DNA of 64,000 nucleotides from Takakia lepidozioides (GCA_030704615.1 CM060734.1:58466001-58530000), one strand, 5' to 3'. Counted from the first letter of the stretch, positions 1,313 to 47,561 are shown. Notes: a model not told the origin generated them from the letters alone. Made by a program: numbers and translations.

Positions 1313-1939
1313 TAGGGAACGGAGAGCAGGACAGGGAACGACTGTGGGGAACAACACCTGCAAATGGAACATGTTAGTTCACAGACGACGGTTAGTGAGG
1401 GAAACGGTTAGAGCCACGGGTAGGAAGATAAAGCGAGAAGCAAGGACTGAGAAGGGGGATTCTTGGAAGCACTTCGGACATCACTGGGGGAAAGGAAGAG
1501 GGAGCGGATCTCTGAGCAGAAAGATGGAGAACACGGAGTAGGAGGAGGAGGAGGTATTGAGGCATAATGAACGCAAGCAGTAGAATTGTAATGTAGAGCA
1601 GATTAAAGACTCCATGGTTTCAGCCTGATACTTGATAAATATTAATCTGATACACACTTCATACTCACACTGTGTAGAGAGATCTGAGTGAAGCTGTGGA
1701 ATGAATGGATGAGTTGATGGAGCAAACTGATACTTAATTACCAGCAGTAAGGTAACTAGCTAACATGAATGCGGGAAGGAAAACAAATAGGAAACACCCC
1801 CATGATACACTAGCTGTAGGTCATGACTGATTGTTCTGAGCGGGCTGAGTACTTAGAGATTTCCAACTCTTCTATCTTGGAGTTTCCGCCTCGGATAGCG
1901 AAGGGATGGATGAGTAAAAGCCGCGCGACATAGCAGCTT

Positions 1940-4900
1940 CTCTACGAATGGATGTAGGTAAATCCGGCTCTCAGCCAAAGAGAAGAAAATTAGGTGAGAA
2001 TGAGGCAAGTGATGCTTGCTTACTGAACTTGTAGCCCATGGCTAACCAGGATAACTGAAGGTCCCAATCTCCTAGGTGTCCCTTCTGCAAGCCATACTTG
2101 TGCAAACCCCTCTTTACTGTCTGAACAACCCTCTCTGCCAAGCCATCGGCCTCAGGATGATCCCGAGAAGTGGTGCGGTGGTCTACCAAGGCCTTGTCAC
2201 ACAAAGCCTGAAACTCCCCCAAGAACTATTTCCCTTGGTCCGTGAGTACCTCAGCTGGAGCACCAAATTGGCTAAGTACACAATCCAAGAATGCATACGT
2301 AGCTCCCTCACTAGCCTTATCAGGCAATGGAACCAACTCGATCCACTTGGAGAAGTGCTCCACCATCACCAACACGTACTTGTTGTGGCGCATGGTCAGT
2401 GGCAACGGCCCTGCGAAGTCAAGACTTCACCTGTAGTCCAATCCCATGATCGGAAGAGGGTGCAATTGTGGAGTAGGGGCGTTGAATGAAGTACACTCCC
2501 TGTCACACACCATGCACCTAGCCACAAATTGTTGCATCTCTGTGTGCATACCACGCCACCAATACTGCCCCTGCAGTAGACTATGAGTGCGTCGCACCCC
2601 AAAATGCCCCAACTCCTCATGGGCATGCCGCACTAACCGTTCCCGCTGGGTTGGGTGAGGCACAATCCTCACTCGACCATCCTCCCACACTCAAAGCAGG
2701 TGTGTCCCCTCCTACTTGAACTTCTTGGCTCGTTGTAGGATCCGATCCCTCTCCTTGGCAGTCACAGTGGCTGTCGTGTCTCCAGTGCGGAGATAGTCCA
2801 ACACAGCTGAATCCTCATGTATATCTTTGGCGCCACCTTGCTCATTGCTGGCCTCAAGGTCCTCAGACACTTGATCTACAGTTATCCATGTTGCAGGTCC
2901 AGCCTGGCCTTCCGCTGCCAAGGTACACAGAAATGCAGATGCATGCCATCCGGGCACCATCTCCTCATCCATCCCACCATGACCAAACCCGGTCGATGCA
3001 CAACCTGAAAGTCATACTCTTGAAGGATGAGTGCCCACCGTGCAAGCTTCCCTGTAAGCTTGTCTGACTCCATCAACCACTTGAGTGGTTGGTGATCCGT
3101 GACAAGGGTGAAGAGATTGCCGTATAGATAGCACCTGAAGTGTGCCACGGCCCACACTGCAGCTAAGCATTCTCCCTCATATGAGTCATACTTAGACTCT
3201 GCAACGTTGTTCGAGCGGCTAGCATAAGCCACTACGAACTCTCTTCCCTCATCATCCACCTGTGTGAGCACCGCTCTAAGCCCCAGCATGCTCCAATCTG
3301 TATGCAGCTGAAAAGGACGCCCCCTGATAGGTCGTCTCAAATTGGGCGCCGAGGTCAACCTCGCCTTGAGCTCCTGAAAAGCTTGTTCTTGCTCATCTTC
3401 CCACTGCCACTCCTGATCCACCTTGGCCTTTGCAATGGTACTAAATCCCTTAACAAACCGTCTATAATAGTTTGCTAACCCCATAAAAGCTCGAACTCGG
3501 CTCACATCCGTGGGGCGTGGAATCTGTGCAATGGACCCTACCTTAGTCTGCTATACCCCCAATCCTCCAGGATATATCATGTGACCCAGATACTCAATTT
3601 GGTTGTGGAAAAACTTGCACTTCCCCGGATGTAACTTCAATCCGTGCGCCCTGAAGCGCTCAAATACCACCTGAAGGTGTCTCTCATGCTCCTCCACTAT
3701 AGCACTAAAGATGATGATGTCATCTATGTAGCACCGAGCAAACTCCACCCCTGCTAGAATCCTGTCCATAACTCTCTGAAACTCTGCATGAGCGTTCTTA
3801 AGCCCAAATGGTAAGAATCGCCACTGGTATAGGCAATCATTCCCATGCTCATTGATCCCCCATAATGCCGTCTTCTGCTTATCCGCCTCCTTAATCAGCA
3901 ACTGGTGATATCCGGATCATAAATCCAAAGTGCTAAAGACCTTGGCATGCCCAATGGCATCAAAGATCTCCTCTGGTGTCGGCATGGCATACCTATCGGA
4001 CTTGGTCTGACGATTTACAGGCCGGTAATCACCGCACATACGTCTCTCCGTCCAATTACCATAGACATCCTTCTTGGCTGGCATCACTGTGGCTGAAGCA
4101 TACTCTCCCCCAGATAGCTCCACCAAACAGCCTCCCAAAGGTCCTGAGTTCTCATCTGAATCAAGAACCTCTCCATGTCACGGTATCTATAGGGTCTCCG
4201 AAAGATTGGCGTGTCAGTAGCCAATTCAATGCGAATCTCTTGACCATTCAGTGCTCCTAAGTCCTTCAAACTAAAGGCAAAGCAGTTCCTGTAAGCCCTC
4301 AAGAACCGCCGTATACGTTGTCTCTCTCCTCCGGTGACTATGGGTCCAACATCAGGCTCCTAGTTGTCCTCCGTGACTACAACCTTGAGTCCAGCAGGCT
4401 TAGAGGTAGAAGACGCGTCCCGTGGTTGCTATGCTGCAACCTCTTGAGCAGTGACCACTCCCTCCTCTGTCAGTGACAATGTCTCATCCTGCCCCATCAT
4501 CCCATCCTTGAGGACCTCCTCAACCCGAGAAAAATCCCCAACCTCATCCATCACGGCCGCCTTGGCTGCCAACTCCTTTTGAACCTCGAGCACCTCCCAC
4601 GTGTGCCATGGATGCGGCCTGCATCTCGTGGTCCTCACCTATTCGCCCCCACTCGCTGCCTATACCGTCTCGGTAGGCAAGGAGACCATCAAGAGAAGTG
4701 TACTTCGTACTGAGCGCTGCTCAGCCATAGCCAAGCTGATAATCCAGGTCAAGCAATTGAGATCCATTGCTTGCCCCAACATCTGACGACGTGATGCCTC
4801 AGAAAGAGATGGCACCGCCATGGTACCAGTGGTAAAACCCACCGCCCGCTCGCGCTGGTCAGCATTGGGCTCCACTAATTGGTGCAACTGGCTATCCCAC

Positions 4901-7900
4901 AAGAGGCCAGGTCCACCATAAAAGCATGGGATCCTGGAAAACTGAGCAGTGTAGGCGGCTCTTGGGTGACCCACCTTATTGACCACTGCCAAAGGTGATC
5001 GGTCATCGTGTCTCACACGCTGAGACTGTCTCCCTATGTCCAAAATGCTATCCACCGTCAGGTGTGGTGGCCGCTGCACCCCATCAAATGCACGTTTGAG
5101 CAGTGCAGGTGGCATCAAGTTGGTCCACCATAATCGTGGGCGATGAGCCCGTGACCCCACTGCAGCTGCATCCAGCAACACTGCTAACCCAAGCCAAGAC
5201 CGCACTTGATGCACACTGGCCATCACCTTGGCCCGAGAATCACCCATCAATGGCATTATCCAAGATATATATTGGAGAGTCTGTCTGATGAAGTTGTAAA
5301 TAGCGTAGGACCCTCAACATTTCCCAAAACAGGCGTGATCTTGAGTCGTGTAACCCATTGTCATGCCCGGCTGATGAATGCCCTTGGCAAGGCCAACCTG
5401 CCACTACCAAGTGAATAGGGTCAACCCGCTCCAAACCATGCGCCCCCCGCAAAGAGATGTCTGTTGGCAATGCTTGTTGGTATCCACGAACTGCAGACAC
5501 TGGTAACAAATCATGGTACTGCTGCACCAATTGAGCAACATGGTGCAGTGAGACGCGTCGTGTAGTCTCATCCCTCTCCACATACAGGTAACGTCGAACT
5601 CGTACACATGCCTGCAGCACTGCAGCCAATCCAGTGCTGATCCCGCCAAACAAGTCCAGAAGGCATATGCCTTCATCCGGGCACTACCACACAAGAGGTG
5701 TGGTGTCCAATGGCGACAACTGAGGTGGTCCTGGTGCAATCACCGCACTCTCCTCTTCTCCTGACGATATGAAGGCCTCTACTCAGGCTTGTTGCACCTA
5801 TCTATCAGCAGCCTGCTGCAAATCCCTGCTTGTACCCCATAATGGAATGTGAGCAACCATGGCAGGCAACTCCGTCATACCATGCATGTCATCCTACTCT
5901 GCTGGAGGTGGCACATCCTCTGCATGGGCATTGCCCTCCAGTAACTCTCCAGGCCAACTAACTGCAGCTGTGAAGGCTGCTAGTGTTGGCATCTTGCCCC
6001 GTTGGGCAGCAGCAACACCCCCAATGAACGTCACAGGGAGCTGTACATAACGACCATCCCCTGACTGCTATCCAGGCCTGTAGGATGCTGACTCCTCCCA
6101 AAAATCCAGGATGAAGCCCATGGGATACAACACTGCCCCACCAACGAAGACATCGTAAGAGACCGCATCTGTCACAATGGCCTTGGCTCCCATCATTGAG
6201 CCATCTATAGGATGATCCGGCTGTAGTCTAATGGCCAACTCACGCCGTGTCATGCCCCGAGCCTGCTCTGATCCTCCCAGAGATGTCTGTATCTGGAAAG
6301 GACAAGGCTCCATATCCGCCTCCATGAGGCCCAAACCTGCAATAGTATCTCTGCCCAACATCAGTGGCTGAGCTCCCGAGTCCAGCAAGACCCGCAGTGG
6401 CCGGTACCTCTTGCCTGCCGGTCCACTCAAAGAGAAAATGTCATCCTGGTTGTCTAACAAGACAACTCCATGTGTCACCATGGCGCGGTCAAAGGCTGGC
6501 CTAGCTGGTAGCTCCGTCAACCTGGCAGCTGCAGCTTGCCATGGCGCAGCCGTGGCAGTCTTGACCCTCAAATCCGAGGATTCCTCTGCCACTACACCTT
6601 CCACCAACTCTGTAGAAGATGAAGTGACCTCCCCACTCTCGCAGAGTGTTGCTGCTAGTCTGAACACTACAGCTGGTCTTACCCCCGGTGTCGCGATCAT
6701 GGTTGCCGAGAACAGTGGGGCTTGACACACAGAGGTGGCTGCCCCCAACAACACGCTGGCTGTACTAGCCTTGGCAGCAGGTGTCAGTGCTGCATGTGTA
6801 GCTCTCCCCAATGGCACAATAACGGCCTCTGTATCTTTCGGGCGAGAACTAGGTGCCATGGATGTCGTCGACACTATCTTCCCCAAGATGAATGATTGAG
6901 GTAACCTAGCCTGACGGCTTGCCTCCCCACGCTGTGGATCTAACTCCACCTCTGCACCTCGTGGCTCAGGAACTCGTGCTGCTCCTCGAGTGACGGCTGC
7001 AGCAGACTCCACCTGCACTAGTGGTAGTACTGCCCCACACATAAATCCCATGTCTCTCATGTCTCCTCCGTCAGGATGACGCTGCTGAGGAGGAACAGGA
7101 GGTGGACCCTCAGGTCTTGGAGCTGGTACCACCTGAGCTGTGGCCATGGTAGCAAGCCTTTGCTCTTGTTGTTGAAGCCGGTTGGCCATGCCTTGGTCAA
7201 CGCCCTGACCTCCACGTCCTTGGCCATACTGTGCTTGCCCTCGTCCCACACCTCGTGCCTGATCACCTCGTCCTCTCTGAGGTGCTCCAGCTCGCCCTCG
7301 GCCACCATTGTTCCCTTGGAATTGGCCTTGCCGCAACTCAGGGTGCAAGTCATAACAATGGGCATCTCGATGCCCATACTTGCCACAATGCCCACACTGC
7401 AACTGTGCAAGCTGTGCTTGTGCCGGCCTTTTGCCACTCTCTGGGCAATCTTTCTTGACATGGGGTCCTCCACATGTCCAACATATCACCCCTGGTTGAT
7501 GTTGGCTTGCAAAAGATGCTACTGGCCTCTGTACCTGAGGTCCCCTGTAAGCTCCATGGAATTTGGGTTGGGAAACCTTGCCCCCTTGACCACGCTGTTG
7601 GGCAGACCCTTGTGCCTATTGGCTGGCAATTGCGCCTCGTGCAGGCATGTCCTTGCCAAATCCAATGGTAACAACTCGCTCCTCCACCATGTTGAGCTCA
7701 ATCCGCTCAGCCAGCAGAAACACATCTGCTAATGTGGGTTGGGCTGCTTGTTATAGGGTTGCATCCCGCACCCTTCTCCTGAGCTCTTTGTCCAAAATTC
7801 CATACCAGAACTGGACTGCCTGAGCTTCAGTAACCCCTTGGGTCACACTTATCAAGCGCCTCATACGAGTGTAGGCCTCTCGCAAGCTCTCACTGGATTT

Positions 7901-9915
7901 GCGCTGGAAGTCTTGCAAACTTCGCAGCTTCTCTATCCGTACACCTTGGTAGTTCGTCCACAACTCCTGGAAGAACTCCACCACCGGGTTGAATCTAGGC
8001 ACATGTGTTGTAGTCATGGCAGGAGGAGTAGTAGCACCTTTTGAACTGGTACCACCTGCAGAAGTACCGGCACTACTTATTCCACTACTAATGCTGGCAG
8101 TGGGAGATATTGGTGCTGATGCAGCTACTGGTCGCGTCGTGCCTCGAGTAATGGAGACGTAGTCACGTAACCAATACATCCTCCACTCCTCAATCTTTGT
8201 TTCATGTCCTCGCCTGTGGTAATCGTCCATAGGCGGGCCTTCCAAATGCTGGAACAGTCTCTTCCACGCCATGAATGGGGTGAACAGCTGTGGATTGCGC
8301 ATCTGCTGCAAATCACACGAGCTGTCGAACTCCTGGATAAAGTTGTCCAGCTCGATTGTGCCCATAGCTCCACAGTACCTACAAGGCCCCTTGGTAGCTC
8401 CATACATCTCCTCCATGTCATCCCACAACAATGGCGAATGAAACTGCACATCTGTTGATGAAGCCTCCAAGTTTGTGTCTGACTCTGCACTAGTTGAGGG
8501 TGGAGGTGAAGGTGGTCTGAAACGAACACCTTGTCTAGTGAACCTACTCTCACTGCTATTGCATGTAGCCGTACTCCCCTCAAAACCCTTGGGTAACTCC
8601 GTGATGACACTCACAACCCGCATCTCCCCCACGTGACACTATAAGGCTCTAGTACTAATTCTAATAGTGACACGGGTGAGCACCTATTGCGGATTAAGGG
8701 TCATATCCCAGTGGCTAAGGGCACCTGCACCTGCATCCACCGCAAGAACTCTTATGGTTGGCTGGTCATCAACCCAGCCTCACCATAGAAGAAACACTGG
8801 TGGTCTTGCTGGTCATCACTCCAGCCTCACCACCGACAGCATACTCTAGGATTGACCGATGATCAAATCCGGCCTAATCCCTATGAAAGCAAGCGCCCAC
8901 ACAAAACCAACATGGCGCACAGTCAAGCATGTAGGTGTGGGGGGGATCCAAACACAAGAAACCAAAACATCAACACCCCCACACCAAAATCCCTCCACAA
9001 TGCTACTCCTGCAGAATACCCCAGCCCAAAAACCCCGGACTGACTGGCCTCCACCAACAGAGGCTTTGGCAACTACAAGTACAAAGTAATGAAAATAGTA
9101 AAGAGATGGAGGGGAAGAATAGAGGTCCGACCAAGCAAGATCTAATTCTGATCTATGCTATCAACTGTCAGACTTCTCTCAAAGTGCCTCGCTTGGCATG
9201 ATGGTAAGTTGTGGGAGGTATATCTATATCCAGAAACCTGCCACTAACTTTATCCCAAGCTACAGTAGCTCGCTCTGACCAACCCTCCTCCTCTCTCTGC
9301 TAGGTAGAGACAAAACAATACTCCTCTATCTCCCGCTCACTGAATACTACAGAAAATAAAGGTAGGGTCTGACAGTCTCTCAACTCGAAAGCTTTGAGAC
9401 GGTTGCGGGTGTCCTTGTTGCAAATGACTGCATCTCCTTCAAGCAGAACAAACTGTTTGTTGCTAATGAACCCCCATTCGTGGTTGCCTCGTGCAGAGCG
9501 TGTCCGACTGCAACCACGTCTGATTGCAAAAACTTGTGCAGCTCCTGCTCCTCTGCTCCAGTACACCACGGCCTTGTGGCTGAACACCTTGGTCCCCGGG
9601 GCTGTCTTTGGCTGTGTTCCAAGCCTAGCTTCCACCCACTTTGGTATTTCACCTACAGCTGCAAAACTGCCCAGAAACACATTATCAGACATGTGATTGT
9701 GTTGTATTGAATGTTTCTGTGTCAACAGTGTGATTTTAGTTTTCAATCACTCAAGAGAGATGAGCCGCACGACTGATGCTCTCGTGAAGATAAGATGGTT
9801 CAGGTGTCAAGCTAAACTTGACACCTGACTTAACACTTGAACTAAATCCAAGTGTTAAATACAAATAACTAGATTTATTCTAGTTAGTTTCACACTGTGT
9901 TTATTTAACTTGACA
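1940..9915 (-). mobile_element. Ty3/Gypsy retrotransposon copy 1 (gag-PR-DNMT / RT-RH-IN), decayed, integrase 3'-truncated
   Basis: gag 8632-7751; Zn knuckles CWTCGGPHVKKDC and CGHCGKYGHRDAHC; protease LLDSGAQ; DNMT motifs; RT YIDD (3551-4300); RNase H TDWS..TDHQPL; integrase HHCC and rve core; many stops and frameshifts; colinear with copy 2. Confidence 0.93.
4730..5672 (-). pseudogene. DNMT3/DRM-like C5 cytosine methyltransferase domain of Gypsy copy 1
   Basis: Motif I LLDLFGGISTG, II YVERDE, IV VAGWPCQGHS, VI degenerate (ILDN plus frameshift), VIII AHRPRLWWTN, IX RERAVGF, X RRQMLGQAM. Confidence 0.88.
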
Positions 9916-10577
9916 ACCTAATGTAGAACTACCTACTAGCTGAGAGCAAAACACTTTTGAGTCTTCACAAGGTCTCACAATGCTTATGGTATTTATACCT
10001 TGAATTCCATTCTCAAGGCTAGTTTTCTAGTATACTCTAGAACAATAATTCATGATAGATAGTAAATATCAGAATATTTCAGTAACATGTTAGTTTTAGG
10101 AGATGCAAATAATAGTACTGTAGTAGATAGAAAGGTCAAGAATATTGGTATGGCCAAGAATGCGTTAATTTCTTTGATTGCTCTGCATGTATTGTGCATA
10201 TTAAAATCGGAGGGTCTGTCTAATTTCGACATCTGCAACAACTTTGGTAGGTTTGGCTACCCAGCTACCCTGATACATGCATGTCGTATCTCTTGAGTCT
10301 TGCATTAACTACTCCACATATAGACAGTCCACAGTCCATGGCACTCTGAGAAAAATAGAATCCACAATAATGGCCGTAGATGACGACTCACACTAGTTAA
10401 GATTCCATTAACCCTTAAGTTCCCAAGCGACCTGAATCGGATCACTTTGAATTTACAGTTCGACCAAATTTTTGCAGATCTAATCTAATGGGCCCCACTC
10501 CTGAAGCTTTAATGACAAGGAGATTTGTCTTGAGTATGATGTGTCAAGTTATTTTACCACTAGTGTGAAACTAGCTA

Positions 10578-10654
10578 GGGATATTTACTTGAAAGTTTTC
10601 GTAGGCCCTAAACGCTCATCCGTATTTGTTTGTCACTGATATGTTTGCTTACCC
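10578..10654. repeat. 77-bp GGG...CCC insertion with 4-bp GCTA flanking duplication; second copy at 25602-25678
   Basis: Absent from the homologous terminus of Gypsy copy 1; near-identical copy at 25602. Confidence 0.65.
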
Positions 10655-11969
10655 GCTAGCTTTTACATATTGACATTTGGGATTGGCCCAAGTGTCAATC
10701 CAGGGGTCAAGGCAGATTTAGGCCCTGGAGTGGTTATCTTCACGGTAAGCGCAGGAGGCTCATCTTTCTCGAGTTGAGCCTCACCGCGCCTAGCTATGGC
10801 GCCGTAGTGTGGATTCCCCATGGCGTGGGGTGCACTTGGCTTGACTTGTATTTGAGTGATGAGGTTATATATGCATGAGTTTATGCTTCAGCTTTGTGAG
10901 TTCGCATGAGCTTGTGCTTGTATTCTTCTTCTTTATCACTCGAGAAAGATGAGCTCGTATCTGTGAGTGCCAGATACGAGTTAGTTGTAGCACTTGTGGT
11001 TTTTGCTTGAGAATGAGAGAAACCAAGTTGTTATGCAAGGAGCACCGTGGAGCTCTTGGTTGTTAGAAGCGGAGGCGATGTGGGTTACGGGGTGGTAGAC
11101 CTTGGCATTCGATCTTCAGCTTCAGAGATGAAAGCACCATGCTGCAGGTAATTCCAGAGCACCTTGATGGTTTCAGATTGTGTACATGCATGAGCAAGCA
11201 CGATTGGGAAGAGGACCAGTCAAGAGCAGGTTATAGTGGCTTTGGTGGCAAAGCTGAAAACTGGACTTGGGAATGTGAGCTTTCATTGTGTGAAGGATTG
11301 CAAGACCAAGCGAAAGGGCTGATTTGGCTTGGGGCAAATCAGTGCACTTTGTGGAGTATGTTGAGAGTGGGTTTCAATCTCGAGCTTCAGCATTGAGAGG
11401 GCTCTTGTCATGGCAAGAGCAGGGCTGGAACAGGAGCTAAGAGGTGCGGCAAGGCCATGGAATGTGCACCTAGGGTTTCAGAGCTTGGAAGAAAAGTTCT
11501 TGCACCACAAGAGGAGTGTCTTGTGGCTAGAAATGTAAGCCTTAGGGTTTCAGGAGCTTGGCAAGGGCTGTGGAGTGCTTAGTCTTGTCTTAGAGAGCAT
11601 CAAGGAGCCAAGCAGCAGGTGTAGGGGGCTGGAATAGGCTCTAAGACAGTTGCTATGGCCAAGGAGAGTGCTTGAATGAGTGCTCACAAGGGCTGGGAAC
11701 CAGCAGGGCTTGGTTGTTTGCCATTGAGTTTAGTGGCGTGTTTGGGGAGGCTAAGTGAGAAAGAAGGTTTGGTTTGTGGCAACCACCTCATGGCTTAGGG
11801 CTACTATGGTGGTGTGTGGGAGCCGAAAGAGCAAGAATACATTGCCGATTTCCTCACAGCCACCATAGCTCGGTGGAAAGAAGCCTAGAGTCCAAGAGAC
11901 ACAAACCCTAGCTTGGCGTGGCTAAACCCCTTGGAGAAATGGCTAAAACTGCCAGAGCGGCCATGGATG

Positions 11970-12660
11970 GGGCTGTGACGGGCTGTCCCTGTGGCCTTGG
12001 GGGTTGTGACGGGCTGTGAGGGGTTGTGCCGGGCTGCGCCGGTGGCCTTCAGGGCTGTGACGGGCTGTGTCGGGCTGCGCCGGTGGCCTTCGGGGCTGTG
12101 ACGGGCTGTGAGGGCCTGTGATGGGCTGCGGCCCTGGCCTTTGGGGCTGTGACGGGCTGTGAGAGGCTATGATAGGCTGTGCCCATGGCCTTTGGGGCTG
12201 TGATGGGCTGTGACAGGCCGTGCCTGAGGCCTTTGGGGCTGTGACAGGCTACACCCGTGGCCTTTGGGGCTGTGATGGGCTGTGAGGGGCTGTGACAGGC
12301 CGTGCCTAAGGCCTTTGGGGCTGTGACGGGCTGTGACAGGCCGTGCCTGAGGCCTTGGGGCCGTGACGGACTGTGAGGGGCTGTGTCAGGCCGTGCCTGA
12401 GGCCTTGGGGGCTGTGAGGGGCTGTGGCGAGCTGTGACGGGCTGTGAGGGGCTGTCACAGGCTGTGCCCAGTGGCCTGTGGGGCTGTGACGGGCTGTGGC
12501 GGGCTGTGCCCTGTGGCCTGTGGGGCTGTGACGGGCTGTGACAGGCTGTGGCAAGCTGTGACGGGCGATGAGGGGTTGTGACAGGCTGTGCCCAGTGGCC
12601 TGTGGGACTGTGACGGCTGTGACCAGTGAGCTGTGTGGGCCTGTGCTGGTCTGTGGTGGT
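11970..12660 (+). repeat. GGGCTGTGAC-based G-rich tandem array in the leader of Gypsy copy 2
   Basis: Dozens of gggctgtga(c/g) units with a higher-order period of about 40-50 bp. Confidence 0.92.
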
Positions 12661-15600
12661 CCGTGTTGACCTGTGGACGGCCTGTGCTGACTCGTGGAGG
12701 CACTGGTGGACTGCCTAAGGACTGGCATGTGGTCTTGAAGGCCGAATTTTGACGCTCGTGGAGGGCGGTTTGAGGAGTATCTTCATGATATTCCCATGGT
12801 CATGCAAGTACAGGTGTAGGCTATGTTAGGAACTTAGTATTCCAAACCATAAGCCGCAACAGGTTCTCTACCCGGTTACCTTGTGGAGAGGGGGTTAGGG
12901 ACATGTTCATGACCGGTTGAGTGTCAACACGGAGGTGCCACTAGTTGCTGGGGACAGTGCCGGTTCGAGCACTAATGATACTAGTGGGTACATGAGACGA
13001 GGTATGCGGTTTAGGCCACCTTCACCTCCTGTGTCTTCTACGGAAGGTTCTGATTCGGATTGTGAATCAGGAGGACTCATACCGGCGGTGCAAGTTGTTT
13101 CTTTGCCATTGTTGTGGGACACAATGGAGGAGATGTATGGAGCTACCAAGGGGCCACGAAGGTACTCTGGGGCGGTGGGCACCATCGAGTTGGATGATTT
13201 TATCCAAGAGTTTGATAGTTGGTGTGATTTGCAGCAAATGTGTAATCCACAACTATTTACGCCTTTCATGGCATGGAAGGGGCTGTTTCAGCACCTTGAG
13301 GGGCCGCCTATGGATGATTACCATGAGTTCAGGCGGGGGCATGAGGTTGAGATCGAGGAGTGGAGGATGTACTGGTCACCCGACTATGTCTCCATCACTA
13401 GGGGCACTAGAGCCACGAGGGCAGTGGCTACACCTGCCGCTGCACCGACAGCTTCAGCAAGTAGTAGAGGGACTAGTGGGACTGGTGGTACAGTAGCTAC
13501 GACGTCCACCCAAGCCACTACCGCACCAGTACTAGTACCGGTGCCTGCCTTCAACCCTGTTGTGGAGTTCTTCGAAGAGTTGAGAGGGAACTACCAAGGG
13601 GTGAGGACAGAGAAGTTGCGGAGCTTGCAAGAGTTCCAACGGAAGCCGACCGAGAGCTTGAGGGAGGCTTTCACTCGCATGAGGCGCTGATAAATATAAC
13701 CCAAGGGTTACGGAAGCTCAGGCAGTCCAATTCTGGTATGGGATATTGGACAAGGAGCTGAGGAGAAGGTGCGGGATGCAACTCTCCTACAAGCGGCCCA
13801 ACCCACCTTAGCAAATGTGTTTTTGCTGGCAGAGCAGATAGAGCTCAACATGGTGGAGAAACGAGTGGTCATGGTGGGATTTGCTAAGGAGACACCACGG
13901 GGTAGTGGTGCTCCTAGCCAACCACTACCTCAATGTGCTCAAGGCAACAAGGGGGCTCAGGTGAAGCTCAGGGAAGGGCAGAGAGGACCTCAGATGCAGG
14001 GGTCTCTCCCTTCATTTGCTGGCCAACAACGGGCGGATGTGGTGTGCTGGACATGTGGAGGACCCCATGTCAAGAAGGATTGCCCAGAGGGAGGCAAAGG
14101 GCCGGCACATGCACAGCCTGCACAGTTGCAGTGTGGGCATTGTGGCAAGCACAGGCATGGAGAGGCCCAGTGTTATGGGGTGCATCCTGAGTTGCGCCCA
14201 GGCCAGTTCCAAGGGAACAATGGTGGCCGGGGGCGAGGTGGAGCACCCAGAGAGGACGAGGTGGCCAGCCACGAGGTGCAGGCCAAGGGCAAGCTCAACA
14301 TGGCCAAGGACGCGGAGGTCAGGGGGTTGACCAAGGCATGGCCAACCGGCTTCAGCAGCTAGAGCAGAGGCTCGTTGCCATGGCTACAGCTCAGGTGGTA
14401 CCGGCTCTAAGGCCGGATGGTCCACCTCCTGCTCCTGAGGGAGGAGATATGGGAGGCATGGGATTCATGTGTGGAGCAGCACTACCACTAGTGTAGGTGG
14501 AGTCTGCTGCAGCCGTGACTCAAGGAGCAGCACGAGTTCCTGAGCCATGAGGTGCAGAGGTGGAGTTGGATCCACAGCGTGGGGAGGCAAGCCGTCAGGC
14601 TAGGCTTCCTCAGTCATTCACATTGGCGGAGACAGTGTCGACGCCATCCATGGCACCTAGTTCTCGCCCGACTATTACCGAGGCGGAGGTTACTATGCCA
14701 TTGGGGAGAGCTACACGGGTAGCACCATTACCTAGTGTTGCCAAGGCTACGGCAGCTAGTGTGCTGCTAGGAGCGGCCACATCTGTGTGCCAGGCTCCAT
14801 TGTTCTCGACTACCATGATTGCGACGTCGGGGGTAAGACCAGCTGAGGTGTTCAGGCTGGCAGCTACACTCTATGAGAGTGGGGAGGTTACTTCATCTTC
14901 TGCGGAGATAGTGGGAGGTGTAGTGCCGGAGGGATCCTCGGATTTGAGGGTCAAGACTGCCACGGCGGCGCCATGGCAAGCTGCAGCTGCCAGGTTGATG
15001 GAGCTGCCAGCCAGGCCAGCCATTGAGCGTGCCATGGTGACACCTAGAGTTGTCATGTTAGACAACCAGGATGGCATTTTCTGTTTGAGTGGACCGGCAG
15101 GCAAGAGGTACCGGCCACTACGGGTCTTGTTGGACTCGGGAGCTCAGCCATTGATACTGGGCAGAGCTGCTATTGCAGGCTTGGGCCTCACGGAGGCGGA
15201 TATAGAGCCTTGTCATTTCCAGATACAGACGTCTCTGGGAGGATCGGAGCAGGCTCGGGGCATGACACGGCGTGAGTTGGCTATCAGACTACGGCCGGAT
15301 CACCCTACAGATGGCTCAGTGATGCGAGCCAAGGCCATTGTGACAAACGCGGTCTCATACGATGTCCTGGTTGGTGGGGCAGTGTTGTACCCCATAGGCT
15401 TCACCCTGGATTTTTGGGAGGAGTCAGCTTCCTATAGGCCTGCATGGCAATCAGGGGAGGGCCGGCGTGTGCAGCTCCCTGTGACGTTCATAGGAGGAGT
15501 TGCGGTTGCCCAGCGAGGCAAGATGCCAACACTAGCAGCATTCACAGCGGCAGTGAGTTGGCCTAGAGAGTTGCTTGAGGGCAACGCTCATTCAGAGGAT

Positions 15601-15846
15601 GTGCCACCTCCGGGAGAGCAGGATGACATGTATGGTATGGCGGAGTTGCCTACCATGGTTACTCAGACTCCATTGTGGGGCACGAGCAAGGATTTGCAGC
15701 GGGATATTGATCGACGGGTGCAACAAGCCTGGGTGGAGGCTTTTGTACCGTCAGGAGAGGAGGAGAGTGTGGGGATTGCACCAAGACCATCTCAGTTGTC
15801 TCCATTGGACACCACACCTATTGTGTGGCAGTATCTGGATGAAGGC

Positions 15847-16740
15847 ATTTGTCTTCTGGACTTGTTTGGCGGGATCAGCACCGGATTGGCTGTTGTGTTA
15901 CAGGCAAGTATACGAGTTCGGCGTTACCTGTATGTGGAGAGGGATGAGACTGCACGACGCGTTTCACTTCGCCATGTTGCTCAGTTGGTGCAGCGGTACC
16001 CTGAGTTGTTGTCGATGTCTGCAATTCGTGGATATCAGCAGGCCTTGCCAGCAGACATTTCGTTGTTGGGGGCGCAGGATTTGGAGCGGGTTGGCTCCAT
16101 TGATCTGGTAGTGGCAGGTTGGCCCTGCCAAGGGCATTCATCAGCCGGGCATGGCAATGGATTGCGAGACTCGAGATCGGGTCTGTTTTGGGAGATGGTG
16201 CGGGTTTTGCGCCACTTGCAGCTTCATCAAGCTGTGCATCAAGTCCGGTCATGCCTTGGGTCAGCAGTGTTGCTAGATGCAGCTACAGTGGGGTCACGGG
16301 CTCATCGTCCACGGCTATGGTGAACTAACTTGATGCCACCCGCACTGCTCAAGCGTGCATTTGATGAGGTGCAGCGGCCAGCACATCTCACTGTGGATAG
16401 CATTCTGGACACAAGGAGGTAGTCTCAGCGTGTGAGACACGATGACCGTTTGCCTTTGGCAGTGGTCAACAAGGTGGGTCAACCACGAGCAGCATTACCT
16501 ACACTGCTCAGCTTCCCAGGATCGCATGCTTTCCGGGATAGTGGACCTGGCCTCCTGTGGGATGCTCAGTTGCAGCAGTTAGTGGAGCCTAATGCTGACG
16601 AGCGTGAGCGGGCAATGGGTTTTACCACTGGTACCACGGCGGTGTCGTCTCTTTCTGAGGCATCACGTCGTCAAGTGTTGGGGCAAGCAATGGATCTCAA
16701 TTGCTTGACCTGGATTATCAGCTTGGCTCTGGCTGAGCAA
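15847..16740 (+). pseudogene. DNMT3/DRM-like C5 cytosine methyltransferase domain of Gypsy copy 2, in frame with the protease
   Basis: LLDLFGGISTG, YVERDE, DLVVAGWPCQGHS (PCQ at 16123-16131), AHRPRLW*TN, ERERAMGF..GTT, RRQVLGQAMDLNCL; motif VI region deleted relative to copy 1. Confidence 0.9.
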
Positions 16741-17022
16741 CGCAGAGTGCGGAGTACACTTCCCTCGATGGTCTCTCTGCCTACCGAGACGGTACAGGCA
16801 GTGAGTGGGGGCGAGCATGTGAGGACCACGGGGTGCATGCATCCATGGCACACGTGGGAGGTGCTCGAGGTTCAGAGGGAGTTGGCAGCCAAGGCGGCTG
16901 TGATGGATGAGGTTGGGGATTCTTCCCGGGTTGAGGAGGTCCTCAAGGATGAGATGATGGGGCAGGATGAGGCCTTGTCATTGACTAAGCAGGCAGGGAG
17001 TACTGCTCAAGAGGTTGCAACA

Positions 17023-17031
17023 TAGCAACCA
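17023..17031 (+). promoter_or_regulatory. Putative stop-codon readthrough signal UAG-CAA-CCA (also at 4423-4431, minus strand)
   Basis: Same in-frame TAG CAA CCA in both copies; fits the UAG-CAR-YYA consensus; open in-frame continuation into RT. Confidence 0.7.
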
Positions 17032-17184
17032 CTGGACGCGTCCTCTACCTCTAAGCCCACTGGACTTAAGGTTGCAGTTACAGAGGACAATTGGGAGCCT
17101 GACATTGGACCCATTGTCACCGGAGGAGAGAGACGACGTATACGGCGGTTCCTGAGGGCTTACAGGAATTGCTTTGCCTTCAGT

Positions 17185-19868
17185 TTGAAGGACTTGGGAG
17201 CACTGAAAGATCAAGAGATCCGTATTGAGTTGGCCACTGACACGCCAATCTTTCGGAGACCCTATAGATACAGTGACATGGAGAGGTCTTTGATTCAGAT
17301 GAGGACTCAAGATCTCTGGGAGGTAGGTTTGGTGGAGCTCTCTGGTGGAGAGTATGCTTCAGCCACAGTGATGCCAGCCATGAAAAATGTCTATGGCAAT
17401 TGGACGGAGAGACGTATGTGCGGTGATTACCGGCCTGTAAATTGTCAGACCAAGTCCGATAAGTATGCCATGCCAACACCAGAGGAGATCTTTGATGCCA
17501 TCGGGCATGCTAAGGCCTTTAGCACTTTGGATTTACGATCCGGATATCACCAGTTGCCAATCAAGGAGGCGGACAAGCAGAAGACGACATTCTGGGGGAT
17601 CAATGAGCACGGCAAGGATTGCCTATATCAGTGGCGGTTCTTACCATTTGGGCTTAAGAATGCTCCTGCAGAGTTTCAGAGAGTCATGGATAGGATTCTA
17701 GCAGGGGTGGACTTTGCTCGGTGCTACATAGATGACATCATCATCTTTAGTGTTACGATGGAGGAGCATGAGAGACACCTTCAGGTGGTATTGGAGCGCT
17801 TGAGAGCGCACGGATTGAAGTTGCATCCGGGGAAGTGCAAGTTTTTCCACAACCAGATTGAGTATCTGGGTCACATGATATATCCTGGAGGATTGGGGGT
17901 ACAACAGACTAAGGTAGAGGCCATTGCACAAATTCCACGCCCCACGGATGTGAGCCGAGTTCGAGCTTTCATGGGGTTGGCAAACTATTATAGACGGTTT
18001 GTCAAGGGATTTAGTACCATTGCAAAGGCTCTAACCAAGCTGACCAAGGTGGACCAGGAGTGGCAGTGGGAAGATGAGCAGGAACGAGCTTTTCAAGAGC
18101 TCAAGGCGAGGTTGACCTCGGCGCCTATCCTGAGACGACCTATCAGGGGGCGTCCCTTTCAGCTGCATACGGATTGGAGCATGCTGGGGCTTGGAGCGGT
18201 GCTCACACAGGTGGATGATGAAGGAAGAGAGTTCGTAGTGGCTTATGCTAGCCGCTCGAACAACGCTGTAGAGGCTAAGTACAGCTCATATGAGGGAGAG
18301 TGCTTAGCTGCAGTGTGGGCCGTGGCACACTTCAGGTGCTATCTATACGGTAATCTCTTCACCCTTGTCACGGATCATCAGCCACTCAAGTGGTTGATGG
18401 AGTCAGACAAGCTTACGGGGAAGCTTGCACGGTGGGCACTCATACTCCAGGAGTATGACTTTCAGGTTGTGCATCAACCGAGTTTGGTCAATCGGGATGC
18501 GGATGGATTGAGTCGCAATCCATGCATGAGCCAGCAGGATGACACTGGAGCTCGGTGTCATGGTGAGACAGACGAGGAGATGTGCCGGGATGGCACGCAT
18601 CTGCATTTTTGTGTATCTTGGCATCGGGAGGTCAGGTTAGACCTACAACAGGGATGATTGTAGACGGAGTGTCTGAGGACCCTGAGGCTAGTGATGAGCC
18701 AGGTGGTGCCAGAGATATACATGAGGATTCAGCTGTGTTGGACTACCTCCGCACGGGAGACACGGCAGCCACTGTGACTGCCAGGGAGAGGGATCGGATC
18801 CTGCAACGAGCCAAGAGGTTCAAGTGGGAGGGGATACACCTACTTCGAGTGTGGGAGGATGGTCGGGTGAGGATTGTGCCTCACCCCACACAGCGTGCAC
18901 GGTTAGTGCGGCATGCCCATGAGGAGTTGGGGCATTTTGGAGTGCGACGCACTCATAGTTTACTGCAGGGGCAGTATTGGTGGCGTGGTATGCATACAGA
19001 GGTGCAACAGTTCGTGGCTAGGTGCATGGTGTGTGACAGTGTGCGTGCTTCATTCAACGCCCCTACACCACAGTTGCATCCTTTACCAATCATGGGATTG
19101 GGCTACAGGTGGAGTCTTGACTTCGCAAGACCGTTGCCACTGACTATGCGCCACCACAGATATGTGTTGGTGATGGTGGAGCACTTCTCCAAGTGGATTG
19201 AGTTGGTTCCATTGCCTGACAAGGCTAGTGAGGGGGCTGCGTATGCATTCTTGAATCGTGTGCTTAGCCGATTTGGTGCTCCAGCTGAGGTACTCACGGA
19301 CCAAGGGAGAGAGTTCTTGGGGGAGTTTCAGGCTTTGTGTGATAAAGCCTTGATAGACCACCGCACCACTTCTCGGGATCATCCTGAGGCCGATGGCTTG
19401 GCAGAGAGAGTTGTTCAGACGGTGAAGAGGGGTTTGCGCAAGTATGGCTTGCATAAGGGACACCTAGGAGATTGGGATCTTCAGGTTCCTTGGTTAGCCA
19501 TGGGCTACAGGTTCAACAAACAAACATCACTTGCCTCCTTCTCACCATATATCCTTCTCTTTGGCCGAGAGCCGGATTTGCCTGCAGCCATTCGTAGGGA
19601 CACTGCTCAAGTCCTTAACCTTGACGATCCGGACGTGTGGGTATGTGCATGTGATCAGCGTGCAGAATTGTTCAAGAAAGTCATGCCCATGGCTTTTGAG
19701 AACCTTGCCATTGCACAACACCGTGATACGTTGAGGTATGCCACTATACGTGGTGGAGGATATCGTCCTGGGGTTCGGAGGTTTAGCCCTGGTAATTATG
19801 TTTATTTGCAGCAGACTGCTCCTACGACTCTGGATGTTACTGCAGGGCGTGTTATTCTGAGGGTTTGA
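17185..19868 (+). pseudogene. Gypsy RT-RNase H-integrase (frameshift near 18580)
   Basis: RMCGDYRPVN, LDLRSGYHQ, PFGLKNAP, YIDD, TDWS, YSSYEGE, HEELGHFG..CMVC, TDQGREF, DGLAERVV. Confidence 0.95.
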
Positions 19869-20015
19869 GAGGTGTTGCCCTCAGGGGTCCTGATCTTGGA
19901 GGGTCGGGATGGCATGACTTGGAAGGACCATGTGCGTAATTGTGCGTCATGTCACCTTCCCAATGTCGATGGCAGAGTTGACCCAAACTTGGCAGTGGTA
20001 CCTGCAGGTTTGAGG

Positions 20016-20159
20016 TGCATTCTCTGTGGGTCTGCCAAAGGGGCAGCCACCATGCTGGTGTGTGATCGATGCTCAAGGGGTTGGCATATGGGATGTTTGA
20101 CACCACCTCTTGAGAAGGTTCCTGACGGAGATTGGTTGTGTCCACACTGCTTGGGATAG
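20016..20159 (+). CDS. PHD finger at the C-terminus of the Gypsy integrase
   Basis: CILC..MLVCDRCSRGWHMGCLTPPLEKVPDGDWLCPHC (C4HC3); same frame as integrase across a single TGA at 19866. Confidence 0.9.
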   Translation, partial: CILCGSAKGAATMLVCDRCSRGWHMGCLTPPLEKVPDGDWLCPHCLG

Positions 20160-21554
20160 TGGCAGTGGACATGACTGGAGGCAGCTAACAAGACATGGGA
20201 GGCCAAGCTCATAGGAGTCAATACATGAGATCCCAAGCTCAAGTTCACAGGTTGCAAGACGACGACTAACGATGGGGCAACTCTTGCACCCGGCCTCTTG
20301 ATCTATCGAGTTTAAGTGTAGTAAGGATAGTGGTGGAAGACTTAGTGAGGCTATGGTCACTATCACATCTTGTGGCTACCTGGACTTAGAGGGACCTAAG
20401 CACCAGCTAGGGGGGCGATTGTGTGGACTAGTGACTGCCATAGTGGGCAGCATAGTGGCAGCCTAGTGACTGACTAGTTGTAGCCTAGTGGTTGGACTAG
20501 TGGCTGGACTAGTGGTGGACTAGTGGTATACTAGTGTGTGGTGTGCACATGTGTTGTGTGGTTTTGGACAGCAATGTAGTTGTGTAGCGATATGTATGCG
20601 CACGACAGATGCAAAAAACACAATTGAAAAAAAGCAAAAGCTACCACCTACAAAAAATATCTTAGATCTCTTATTTACGTTTTGGGCCTGAAAAGGGCTT
20701 GTTGACCACTGACGTGGCAGGTAAACAAGCCCAAAACAGATTGCACTCCAAAGGCCATTTTTGGCAGAAAATTAGCAATTTTAGAAAAAGCACTTCACAT
20801 TGTGGTGTGTGAGCATTACATACACACATCGGCTTTTAAAGATTTTGTAGAAAAAAAAGTACTTCATTTGGAGGCACATTTTCTCTTGTCAATTTTGAGA
20901 TTTCAACCCCTATGTAATTGCATGCAAAGCAACCATAAGTGAAAAAATCAATTGGACCTGCAATTTAGGGGGTTCATAGCCACTCCACTATTGATTTGGA
21001 AATGGTGGGTCTTGAGGCAAGAAAAATTGGATAAAGCTAGGTTTTGATTTGGTCAAACCAATTTCTTTCTCATTTTTTCTTTGGGACCTGATATTTGAGG
21101 TCTGGGCCACAATTATAATCTCACAATTTCCATGGTGGACTTGGCTCATTTTTTGGTATGTCATGTATAAATGAGCTGGGCCCATTGCTATAAGGCTAGA
21201 ATCTCTGGATGATTCTTGGTAGGTTTCTAGGGGCAATTTACTACAGTTCGGTACCCAAAATTGATAAAAAGTCAAAAAATGGCTTGGGAACTTAAGGGTT
21301 AATGCACTCATGGAATGATTGGACGTTAGTATAACAACGACGCTAGGTCGTGAACAACTTTTTTCTTTTCTTTTTTCTTTTCTTTTTCCTTTTTGTTTGG
21401 GCGTGGATGTGGCAAAATTTTCTTGAGGTTAAGTGCAGAGGTGGTAACATGTACAATATCCACCTGGATCCTACCTAGCTATAGGTATGCAATATATTGT
21501 GCAATATGGTGATTTCTTGAAAACATCAAGGATACTTCCCAGGCGACACAGCCC

Positions 21555-26579: not shown

Positions 26580-29500
26580 AATAAGACATAATATCGTGGA
26601 AAATCAGATATTTCTTTGACTGAGAGAAAGATTGTAGACAATGAGTATGTCTGGGCAGAGTCTAGCTGGGCAGGAGCATGGTGAACAAATGCATGTTAGC
26701 AGCCACAGTGGTACTGTGTGGTCAGGTGGCCTACCCTGGTAGGTGTCAGCATTCACGAGTGAGAACCACCTAGTTTCCGCACGTTTTTAAAAAAACTTAT
26801 GGAGGGGCCAAACTACATGGTTGTGTCTCGTGATATGCGTACATTGGCTGAGAAGATGCGGCCATGTGTCACGAGCTTGGTGGGTGGTGGAACATAGCGG
26901 GTAGTAAGGGGATGGGAACAAGTGTGGCCATAAATGTGTTTGCGTTGGTCAGCCATGTATTAGACGTATTTAAATTTGAGTGTTTGTCAGATTTGTGCGT
27001 CAGTGGTTGCTTTGGTTAGCCAGAAGTGATTTGAGAGTTTATGGTGTAGGATATCGGATTGAGTCCATTTTTGGATGTGTACTTTTGGTATGGCTGATGG
27101 AGACGACGGCTTGTTTGTGTGCTTCTCGGGTCAGAGTGGTTAGGAGGTTATGGACTGGTCTAGGTGCAGGGGGGTCGGGGACTGGGTGAATGAACCAAAA
27201 GGGGTGTGTGTGAGCGATGTGGATGGGATACTTCGTGGGTAATACTGGGGGTTGAGAGGCGCTGAGGTGAGCGAATAGATCGGCTTTGTCATTTCCATGA
27301 ATACCAGTGTGTGAGCGGACTTTGAGGAAGTGGACTGGGTGGGTGATAGAGGTGGCTTTGTGAACAATGGCAACAATAAGGTTACGATCGGGGTGATGAT
27401 GGTGGGTAGAGGGGCGGGAGACGTGGTTTCGGATCAGATATAGGGAGGTAAGGCTGTCAGTAAAGCTATAGTATAGAAGGGGGAAGGCGCCAATCAAGGA
27501 GAGAGCGTCATGGATAGCCATAAGTTTTGCTCTAAGAAAGGTGGCAGGGCCCGGGAGCCGGAAGGCAACTCCCTGCCCGTCGCCAGCGTGGTAAATGTCA
27601 TACCCTGCCTTATGGTTGGTGAGGGAACCATCCGTATAGTGGGAGTTTGTTGGGGGATTCTTGAGGGTGGTGTTTTGTTGATATATTGAAGGAATGGGGG
27701 GATGGGGTGTTGTTGGTGTAACTTGGGGGGGGGGGGGGGGGGGGCGACTCCGCCATGCCCCAAGCTTTATTTGTTTTAATCCGGAAGGGTGTGACGGGGG
27801 TATATCTGGGTAGTGGATGATGTCTTCATTTTATGATTTATGGTTAACAGCTGTTCGAGTTGGTGAAGGAAGAGTGTCGGTATGTCTGTGTGTAGGGGGT
27901 TTTGAACGTGCAGGATCAAGGTAAGGGTAGGTTCTTTACGTTTAAGGTGTTTGGGGAGAGGGGGGGTATGAGCATATTGTAGTTGATTTATTTTGTCGAA
28001 AGGGTCTGCCGGTCTGCTGGAGGGTTTGTCTACTAGAAGGTTGGAGTCGGTCTGTTGGAGGGTCTGCCCAGTCTGCTAGAAGGTCCGTCACGGTAGTTGA
28101 ACAAGGACTTGGAAATTTTTTTGAATCTGGCCGACTCGGTGAATGGGCAGTGGGCTTATGAGCTCACCCCAAGGGCCGTACTAGCGGGGCCCGCCCGTGT
28201 ATTCATGACCTTATTATTGTAAAATGAGAGGCATTACTCATAGGGTGAAGGTATTTTTGAATGATACGTGTCAAGCAGTGTATGGATATGTAGTGTGAAA
28301 AGAAATGGGCAAAAACCCCTTTGTAGTTAGTTAGCTGATTGTTCATTGACCAGATAATGCCATTGTCACAGACATAGCTCAGAAGAACTTACCAGGAGTA
28401 AATATCAGAAGTTATCAAGTTACCATGTTACCAAAAGTTACCATGACTTACTGTGATTTACCATGATCTACCATTATTTACCATTATTTACGAAGTTACC
28501 GGGAGTTTATCAAATTACCAAGAGCAAATTGGGAAACTGCTCATGAAGCTTTCTTTGGAGGAAACTTCTCCATCAAGATACCTCATTTGTGTAAGGAAGC
28601 TTCTCCATCAAGAAACCTCCATAGGGGAAGCTTCTTAGGGAACTTCTTAGTAGCCAGTATATATAGGAGGCAAGACTGGACATTCTTAAGTCTCGCCAAC
28701 AAAAGTTCAAGCTACTCTTGTTCCCAGTTTCAGTACTCCAGTCCAGCTTCCAGTACTCTGTCTAGTTTCCAGTATCTGGTACGCCAGTCCAGTTTCCAAC
28801 ATTCCAGTATTCGAGTCGAGTCCCAGTATCTTGTACTCTTGTCCACTGTTATAAAGATCATCTTGATTCTTGTTTACCCACCATGCATTCGGCCACGCCG
28901 ACCTTGTCTTCTTGTCTAGTCCATCAACCAATATTATGGTATTTTTAAATACTTCTCTAAGTCGAGAGGGCATCTGAAGTTCAAGTACGATGTCACTGAT
29001 AATAAATGGATAGATATTGATTCTAGAGTATTTTGGGTTTGAGATGTCATTGTGACAAGAAAGGGCTTGTAAGCCATGCACATTCTAAATGGGAGGAGGT
29101 GTTGGGATAATCTGGCAGCTCAGTTTGTATGCGAATTTTCATTCGACGTAGTATGAGCAGTGTATGTGCAATGGGGGAGTGTAAGCAGGTTTGTGAGTGT
29201 AAGGAAGCTAGTGAGTACATGCCATTGTAGTTTAAGGCAATGTGTTTAAGAAGTCCCTGGTAGATGATACCTAGACATCCTGGGTCGTTGAGCGCTTCTT
29301 TTAATTGTATGCCCAATGTCCTGGCATATGAGATGATTAATGGGCTAGCTCCGATTCCGTAGTTATCAGTTGGGAATTGTGTAAGAGCATTAGGGGTACT
29401 AATTGGTAGACCACATACATGTTTAGTAAGATGAATAATTTTTTTGTCTAGTTTTTTGACGTCAGGTATGGAGAAGGGGGCAGCATGGAACGAGTATTGA

Positions 29501-36120: not shown

Positions 36121-36129
36121 TAATCATTA

Positions 36130-46903: not shown

Positions 46904-47561
46904 CCCTATGAGGTCCAAACCCGGAAATGAGGAGGTACGAAGACAAGTATTTGCAAAGGAAGAATTGCATGAAATACCAGTAGTGACCTTGGGGCATGCC
47001 TGCTTTGTGGGGGTTGTCAAGTGAACTTCAGATAGTGGTATTGAGTCCTGAATTTTCCCTTTCCCTTTGGATGTAGTGCCTTGCCCTTGAGAGAGAAAAC
47101 AGATTTCATCTTGCATAGGATCAAGGTTGAAGTGACCCCTTTGTGAAGGAGGGCAGTTGCTGCTTACGGTGGACCAAAAATGTTGTCACAACAGAGTTTT
47201 TGGGATTTGAGCCTTCATAATAACTATTTTCGTAAAGTCTTCCCTGACTAATCAAGATCCCAAAAAAACTGTGTTGTGACAGCATTTTTGGTCCACCGTA
47301 GGCTGCAACTGCCCTCCTTCACAGAGGGGTCACTTCAACCTTGATCCTATGCAAGATGAAATCCGTTTTCTCTCCCAAGGGCAAGGCACTACATCCAAAG
47401 GCAAAGGGAAAATTCAGGACTCAATTCCGCTATCTGAAGTTCACTTGACAACCCCCATAAAGTAGGCATGCCCCAAGGTCACTACTGGTATTTCATGCAA
47501 TTCTTCATTTGCAAATACTTGTCTTCGTACTTCCTCATTTCCGGGTTTGGACCTCATAGGG
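46904..47561. repeat. Long inverted repeat, ~305-bp arms with a ~45-bp loop
   Basis: 46904-47208 is the reverse complement of 47254-47561, with scattered mismatches. Confidence 0.93.

Follow-up and report, generated by a model that had tools for sequence, protein, structure and literature searches.

The 64,000-nucleotide (64-kb) stretch of Takakia lepidozioides DNA analyzed here (GCA_030704615.1 CM060734.1:58466001–58530000; hereafter the window) contains two related Ty3/Gypsy-type retroelements that encode a DNA methyltransferase (DNMT) domain. Copy A lies on the plus strand, copy B on the minus strand, and their DNA is 82%–90% identical. Copy A spans 10542–20607 and lies between 4-bp target duplications (GATG). 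An earlier annotation made from the nucleotide sequence by a model (the sequence-only reading) had recognized a Gypsy element with a DNMT and a PHD finger, which are indeed present, but had drawn its limits, 13130–20159, too narrowly. The domains of copy A follow the order gag-protease-DNMT-reverse transcriptase (RT)-RNase H-integrase-PHD, with Pfam matches to DNA_methylase (PF00145, E = 1.1e-10), RVT_1 (1.9e-32), RT_RNaseH (1.5e-35), rve (1.2e-13), and PHD (1.4e-11); PF00145 also matches copy B (E = 7.6e-9, minus strand). Feature coordinates are collected in Table 1.

Both copies are defective. Copy A is interrupted by in-frame stops and frameshifts, and a 23-codon deletion near 16235 removes methyltransferase motif VI, which had previously been described as partly present in this copy. 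In copy B, a frameshift falls at motif VI and the element is truncated within the integrase near 1932, such that the PHD finger is visible in copy A only. Contigs of other copies from the same organism have motif VI at the corresponding place. The ratio of nonsynonymous to synonymous substitution (dN/dS) between copies A and B is 0.16 for the RT, 0.16 for the N-terminal half of the DNMT, and 0.35 for the protease. Read depth is much higher over the element than in adjoining DNA and is not usable as copy number.

The methyltransferase domain and its descent

By sequence and predicted fold, the DNMT of this family is DNMT3-like and unpermuted. Motifs I (LFGG), II, IV (GWPCQ), VIII (AHRPRLW), IX, and X occur in the order given by the sequence-only reading, and the domain scores 41.9 bits against PF00145 (gathering cut-off 22). 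The nearest solved proteins by sequence are DNMT3A and DNMT3B (E = 6e-12 for DNMT3A, compared with 1.6e-4 for DRM2 and 4e-3 for M.HhaI), which are also the best fold matches (template-modeling score about 0.67–0.70) to the predicted structure of an intact domain (predicted local distance difference test score 87). The earlier proposal of an unpermuted, DNMT3-like C5-methyltransferase motif series in both copies is thus borne out.

Residue and codon comparisons indicate that in the relatives the DNMT is under purifying selection, with its catalytic residues retained. Among 49 full-length domains, the motif IV catalytic cysteine is kept in 46, the motif VI glutamate and asparagine in 49 and 48, and the two motif VIII arginines in 48 and 49, respectively. 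With saturated pairs left out, DNMT dN/dS is 0.10–0.12 in three pairs among the loci L060–L062, the RTs of which give 0.04–0.05; between two old moss-like copies the DNMT value is 0.77, as expected after insertion. The PC and ENV motifs, on whose retention under purifying selection the sequence-only reading had staked its claim, are kept in the relatives.

The N-terminal half of the domain has 50 matching proteins, the nearest of which (60%–77% identity) come from Marchantia, Calypogeia, and Sphagnum; relatives of the element occur in these genera as well as in Closterium, Klebsormidium, and green algae. The DNMT lies within the polyprotein in the second copy and in the bryophyte and algal relatives, making it a family trait, as had been proposed, and no such element features in the standard survey of land-plant Gypsy elements. 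In an RT tree of 125 sequences (FastTree, midpoint root), all DNMT- or PHD-bearing elements form one clade, apart from chromovirus and animal Gypsy matches; its members include Klebsormidium, Closterium, and Tetraselmis elements, and the window copies adjoin Marchantia and moss-like loci. Klebsormidium P0155 (RT-RNase H-integrase-PHD), which begins after the DNMT position, falls in the same clade (support 0.96–0.998). For the 39 elements with both domains, the DNMT and RT trees show no strongly supported conflict, and the former recovers 16 of the 17 strong splits of the latter; this agreement points to one old acquisition of the DNMT. The family is most likely the land-plant branch of the lineage of KnitGypsy-Dnmt3, described as a Klebsormidium nitens Gypsy element with a DNMT3 in Pol and DIRS-like repeats (de Mendoza 2018, PMC5890265), and not a new capture, the published Klebsormidium elements being compared by description.

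Several members of the clade, or elements near it, depart from this layout. In a well-supported subclade (P0047, P0048, P0148, P0156–P0169) the DNMT is located between RNase H and integrase and not before the RT; since its position differs while the DNMT and RT trees are compatible, the DNMT appears to have moved within the polyprotein. One relative (L084–L086) has a PHD finger without a DNMT, a single open reading frame (ORF), and a symmetric palindrome; its contigs, like L082 and L083, are binned into bacterial assemblies. The genome-contig search gave six contigs binned in this way, five of them from the present clade. Viral-contig searches gave no match for the window RT or P0085, and one unrelated Gypsy element for the alignment. 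At the base of the clade, the Gypsy polyprotein P0167 contains a Dam-like domain downstream of the protease and a PHD finger upstream of the integrase. Three annotated Marchantia host genes, one of them annotated as a DNA cytosine methyltransferase, are Gag-protease-DNMT frames of the element (P0003, P0004, and P0006; Mp4g09160, Mp8g15430, and Mp8g17980).

Stop signal, terminal repeats, and integration

The sequence-only reading had the DNMT in frame between protease and RT; its position and frame hold, but a TAG separates it from the RT in both copies (17023–17025 in copy A, 4429–4431 in copy B). The other loci compared are short-read metagenome contigs, and among the 44 with the RT start in view, a set dominated by one moss-like family, 43 carry TAG or TAA followed by CAR-YY (six with the full CAR-YYA), L081 being the sole locus without this context; the same context occurs at only 7 of 631 decay stops. 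The signal is kept in five long terminal repeat (LTR) families with unrelated linkers, and the domain order is retained across dozens of loci. The intact L062 has exactly two frames, of 1369 and 1047 aa. TAG-CAR-YY is therefore likely a leaky-stop signal that terminates ORF1 (Gag-protease-DNMT), the predicted major product; occasional readthrough would give the rarer RT-RNase H-integrase-PHD, and the methyltransferase would be made and packaged at the level of Gag. The readthrough signal of tobacco mosaic virus (TMV), as reported, is CAR-YYA (PMC2754532), with the same stop codon and six-base downstream context (UAG-CAR-YYA), although the TMV signal lies in the viral replicase and the present one is predicted and follows Gag-protease-DNMT.

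The element has the Gypsy order of protease, RT, RNase H, and DDE integrase, a primer-binding site (PBS), a polypurine tract (PPT), and 4-bp target duplications, but not the two identical LTRs around an internal region that characterize Ty3/Gypsy. Instead, loci have the layout A..B-A-B or A..B, where A and B are distinct terminal repeats. Copies begin with TGTC, finish with GACA, and lie between 4-bp target duplications, which are exact in six and have one mismatch in two of eight independent both-ended insertions, copy A being additional. NCGN, the preference of Phygy, is absent from the target duplications listed, and old copies lose CG. The long form (A-coding-B-A-B) is seen in six independent insertions, and both its joints occur in host contigs, the A/B joint in one contig only. 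The PPT precedes B and the PBS follows A in every family, so by standard reverse-transcription rules the LTR is B-GC-A; at the B-A joint there is a constant 2-nt spacer and no target duplication. The second A is directly followed by B, a joint that equals two ligated cDNA ends. Most A/B joints are precise, and in one insertion (L014/L015) 9 nt from the PBS and the PPT side remain there, the trace expected of an aberrant circle junction. The prokaryotic-type methyltransferases at L077–L080 are unrelated and were excluded from counts of ends, and the proposal that 10578–12801 is a foreign insertion was ruled out, as this region consists of repeat A, the PBS, and the leader.

After the PPT, the LTR center carries a palindrome, ACGACA-GC/GT-TGTCA, in the window host, the moss-like loci, L060, L062, L082, and L083. 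It is conserved among otherwise unrelated LTRs, and its two CA dinucleotides mark the exact ends of the copies, which lack the spacer. Because copies start at A and end at B, though the LTR is B-GC-A, the integrase appears to cut GACA-GC-TGTC inside the LTR. Rearrangement, nesting, or misassembly of an ordinary A-B LTR element could in principle produce such ends, and short-read contigs, two of which (L027 and L045) differ at one insertion, invite this explanation. It is, however, largely refuted, and we regard it as very improbable, given the invariant PPT and PBS positions, the constant spacer without a target duplication at B-A, the target duplications flanking the whole unit, and the same repeat layout reported in Klebsormidium (PMC5890265).

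No tRNA-type PBS was found. Directly downstream of A, the sequence is complementary to a central part of A over 16 nt in copy A and in three moss-like loci, 15 nt in L062, and 12 nt in L082, with different sequences in each of the four families and no equal in 1000 shuffles for each (0/1000). The pairing suggests that transcription begins mid repeat A and that the RNA serves as its own primer at the PBS. Tf1/Sushi and Tcn1 are reported to self-prime with a PBS complementary to their own RNA and not to a tRNA (PMC6317226), but these are chromoviruses with ordinary LTRs, whereas in the RT tree the present clade falls outside the chromovirus matches, and it carries a PHD finger. The C-terminal chromodomain of chromoviruses (Tcn1, Chlamyvir) has no match in the window or L062.

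We consider it probable that copy A is a decayed member of an old green-plant Ty3/Gypsy lineage, with a DNMT3-like methyltransferase and a PHD-tipped integrase, that cuts a palindrome inside its LTR on circularized cDNA premethylated by the packaged methyltransferase. After self-priming, reverse transcription would give linear cDNA with B-GC-A at both ends, as predicted from the PPT and PBS positions; joining of these ends would yield a two-LTR circle, methylated by the packaged DNMT. The integrase would then nick the PBS-side LTR 3′ of each CA in GACA-GC-TGTC, with loss of the GC and a 4-bp duplication on insertion. The predicted product, A..B-GC-A-B, is the layout observed, and only this long form would have the terminal redundancy for a further round; the short form (A..B) would arise from one-LTR circles or through subsequent B-by-B deletion, and should be unable to propagate further. 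A little less firmly, we lean toward the wider view that, in a Gypsy lineage shared by green algae and bryophytes, the cDNA ends as integrase substrate have been given up in favor of LTR-circle integration at a mid-LTR palindrome, with a DNMT3 that is packaged via readthrough, methylates the cDNA, and possibly gates the palindrome. In the usual view, LTR circles lead nowhere and DDE integrases act on the ends of linear cDNA. Palindrome-cutting chemistry nevertheless has a precedent, since HIV-1 integrase, likewise a DDE enzyme, is reported to cleave the palindromic two-LTR circle junction in vitro (PMC1905944). As described, the HIV-1 palindrome is the cDNA-end joint and its cleavage a side reaction, whereas the present one is a separate mid-LTR site that defines the ends of every copy.

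The same long form and 4-bp duplication, and an occasional PBS/PPT remnant at the A/B joint, would also result if the integrase cut the PBS-side palindrome on linear cDNA and inserted both cut ends, with host end-joining sealing the A end to the B start. This route would need a chromosome break at every insertion, sits poorly with the precision of most A/B joints, and explains the one-sided choice of palindrome no better; we think it unlikely.

Several observations weigh against our preferred reading as a whole. The circle, the cut, and the readthrough product are each deduced from sequence. The mirror product is seen at none of 19 independent 5′ ends (20 clusters, less one internal A), and a plain circle model offers no explanation for one-sided use of the palindrome. 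Self-pairing does not exceed shuffles in two of five old moss-like copies, and the short and long forms occur at one insertion in two assemblies (L027, L045), such that some short forms may be assembly collapse. At the stop, an ATG follows soon after in the moss-like family, and 36 of the 44 contexts are CAA CCC/CCT or have a close ATG; reinitiation in place of readthrough is possible in this family, and the distant relatives P0065, P0085, and P0100 have a single frame with no stop. The Klebsormidium enzyme is reported to be inactive in yeast (PMC5890265). Finally, the palindrome persists in the relative that lacks a DNMT, and the palindrome route hence does not require this enzyme.

The one-sided cut could be accounted for if the DNMT acts as an integration switch, a methylated CG in the B arm (ACGACA) mimicking the A arm (TGACA) and thereby licensing or blocking one palindrome and shielding chromosomal ones. 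Every DNMT-bearing LTR family seen has CG in the B arm and TG in the A arm, and the DNMT-less relative L084 has a symmetric CGTGACA-GC-TGTCACG. This is, however, a single DNMT-less family, whose lack of a DNMT is read from the sister contigs L085/L086 with the termini outside view, and the idea relies on a presumed sequence specificity of the enzyme; we rate such a switch as rather improbable.

The PHD finger and comparison with known systems

The PHD finger resembles those of KDM5-PHD1, CHD4, BHC80, BAZ2, and UHRF1, and all 41 matched fingers have glycine or alanine at the position that we take to be that of the H3K4me3 cage tryptophan; fingers without this residue presumably bind unmethylated H3K4, as ADD does. 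The finger is best read, on sequence grounds, as an integrase tether, which would bind H3 tails unmethylated at K4, while the most likely substrate of the packaged DNMT is the cDNA, in line with proposals for other elements, so that it would mark the new copy and not the target. The sequence-only reading had instead paired the two domains as writer and reader at the insertion site, like DNMT3-ADD. Their co-occurrence across algae and bryophytes, and the kind of finger involved, lend this some appeal. As worded, however, the proposal lacks support: the domains are in different ORFs in the present family, the PHD finger being on the integrase, beyond the stop codon and presumed protease sites from the DNMT, and each occurs without the other (a PHD finger without a DNMT in L086; a DNMT without a PHD match in P0115, P0121, P0127, and P0130). 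Further, PHD fingers are reported as common in green-algal elements, including ones lacking a DNMT (PMC8557442, PMC9940879). A writer-reader unit thus seems doubtful, and the analogy to ADD is loose.

KnitGypsy-Dnmt3 shares with the present family a polyprotein that includes an unpermuted DNMT3-type domain, the signature of purifying selection, and the A-coding-B-A-B repeats, but its DNMT and RT are described as one ORF, whereas here a leaky stop is predicted between them and the host is a land plant; the text of that paper, so far as available, does not mention a PHD finger, self-priming, an internal palindrome, or an integration route (PMC5890265). The A..B-A-B layout is also that of the split direct repeats of DIRS/PAT elements, which use a tyrosine recombinase and make no target duplication, in contrast to the rve DDE integrase, PPT, PBS, and 4-bp duplications observed here. 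EpiLTRs similarly pair a methyltransferase with a chromatin reader in an LTR element, but the available account describes Dam, a DNMT4-sister enzyme, and a chromodomain (bioRxiv 10.64898/2026.05.21.726589) as opposed to a DNMT3-type enzyme and PHD finger; neither Dam nor a chromodomain has a match in L062 or the window.

We found no published account of the family in land plants, its readthrough, or its integration route in a search that covered subscription literature thinly, so prior mention is possible; a reported PHD-bearing Selaginella Gypsy element was not found in the literature searched. The idea of a DNMT3-Gypsy element is published, and that of a land-plant branch apparently is not. 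What is new here, on sequence evidence, is the proposed readthrough, self-priming, and integration at an internal palindrome; the stop signal, the self-primer, and the unusual ends had escaped the sequence-only reading. A natural, widespread lineage with ends that imply an internal-palindrome cut makes the old idea of circle integration testable, and such a cut would explain the DIRS-like repeats of KnitGypsy-Dnmt3, so far unexplained. Mid-LTR integration, if true, hides the lineage from LTR-finding software, and an abundant family may be missing from, or misclassified in, bryophyte repeat libraries and counts of DNMT genes. In Marchantia and Sphagnum, which carry this putative de novo methyltransferase within a retrotransposon, what the enzyme does for the element can be addressed genetically.

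Feature coordinates and other features of the window

Table 1. Features of copies A and B, numbered from the first nucleotide of the window
Feature	Coordinates	Strand	Remarks
Left target-site duplication GATG	10538–10541	+	Flanks copy A
Terminal repeat A, starts TGTC, ends TCA; 3′ half of RT-defined LTR	10542–10938	+	Start and end letters match loose ends beside B in host contigs
Predicted RNA 5′ end/self-primer, complementary to PBS	10758–10773	+	16 nt, 0/1000 shuffles
PBS, self-priming type (predicted)	10939–10954	+	Pairs with repeat A
GC-rich tandem repeats, 5′ leader	11968–12623	+	Read coverage like rest of element
gag with zinc knuckles; interrupted by stops and frameshifts	13127–14500	+	
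Aspartic protease, LLDSGA	15040–15480	+	Asp_protease_2 match in the intact relative L062
DNMT3-like C5 methyltransferase domain with two in-frame stops; motif VI lost by deletion	15844–16734	+	
Conserved stop and putative readthrough context TAG CAA CCA	17023–17031	+	
RT and RNase H	17416–18456	+	Pfam
Integrase with H2C2 zinc finger, DDE core, and C-terminal region; preceded by a frameshift, stop at 19866	18885–19865	+	
PHD finger, integrase C terminus	20016–20156	+	Pfam
PPT AGCTAGGGGGGCGA	20405–20418	+	Conserved in relatives
Terminal repeat B, ends ACGACA; 5′ half of RT-defined LTR	20419–20607	+	
Right target-site duplication GATG	20608–20611	+	
Copy B: gag-protease-DNMT (4716–5671)-TAG (4429–4431)-RT-RNase H-partial integrase	1932–9915	−	TGTC start at 9915; broken off near 1932

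The sequence that truncates copy B (1048–1932) has a TGTC start on the minus strand and GC-rich tandem repeats like those of the copy A leader, and is possibly another subfamily inserted into copy B. An RNase H-containing frame of another retroelement lies at 27039–27830 (minus strand), and 119–120 bp tandem repeat arrays with a 1.1-kb duplication occupy 34994–38272. A 660-bp hairpin-like inverted repeat, 91% self-complementary, is present at 46904–47561. An intact-looking Exostosin GT47 gene at 55325–56980 on the minus strand points to a bryophyte host with no closely related annotated species, its best named relatives being Sphagnum, Physcomitrium, and Ceratodon proteins at about 44%–52% identity.

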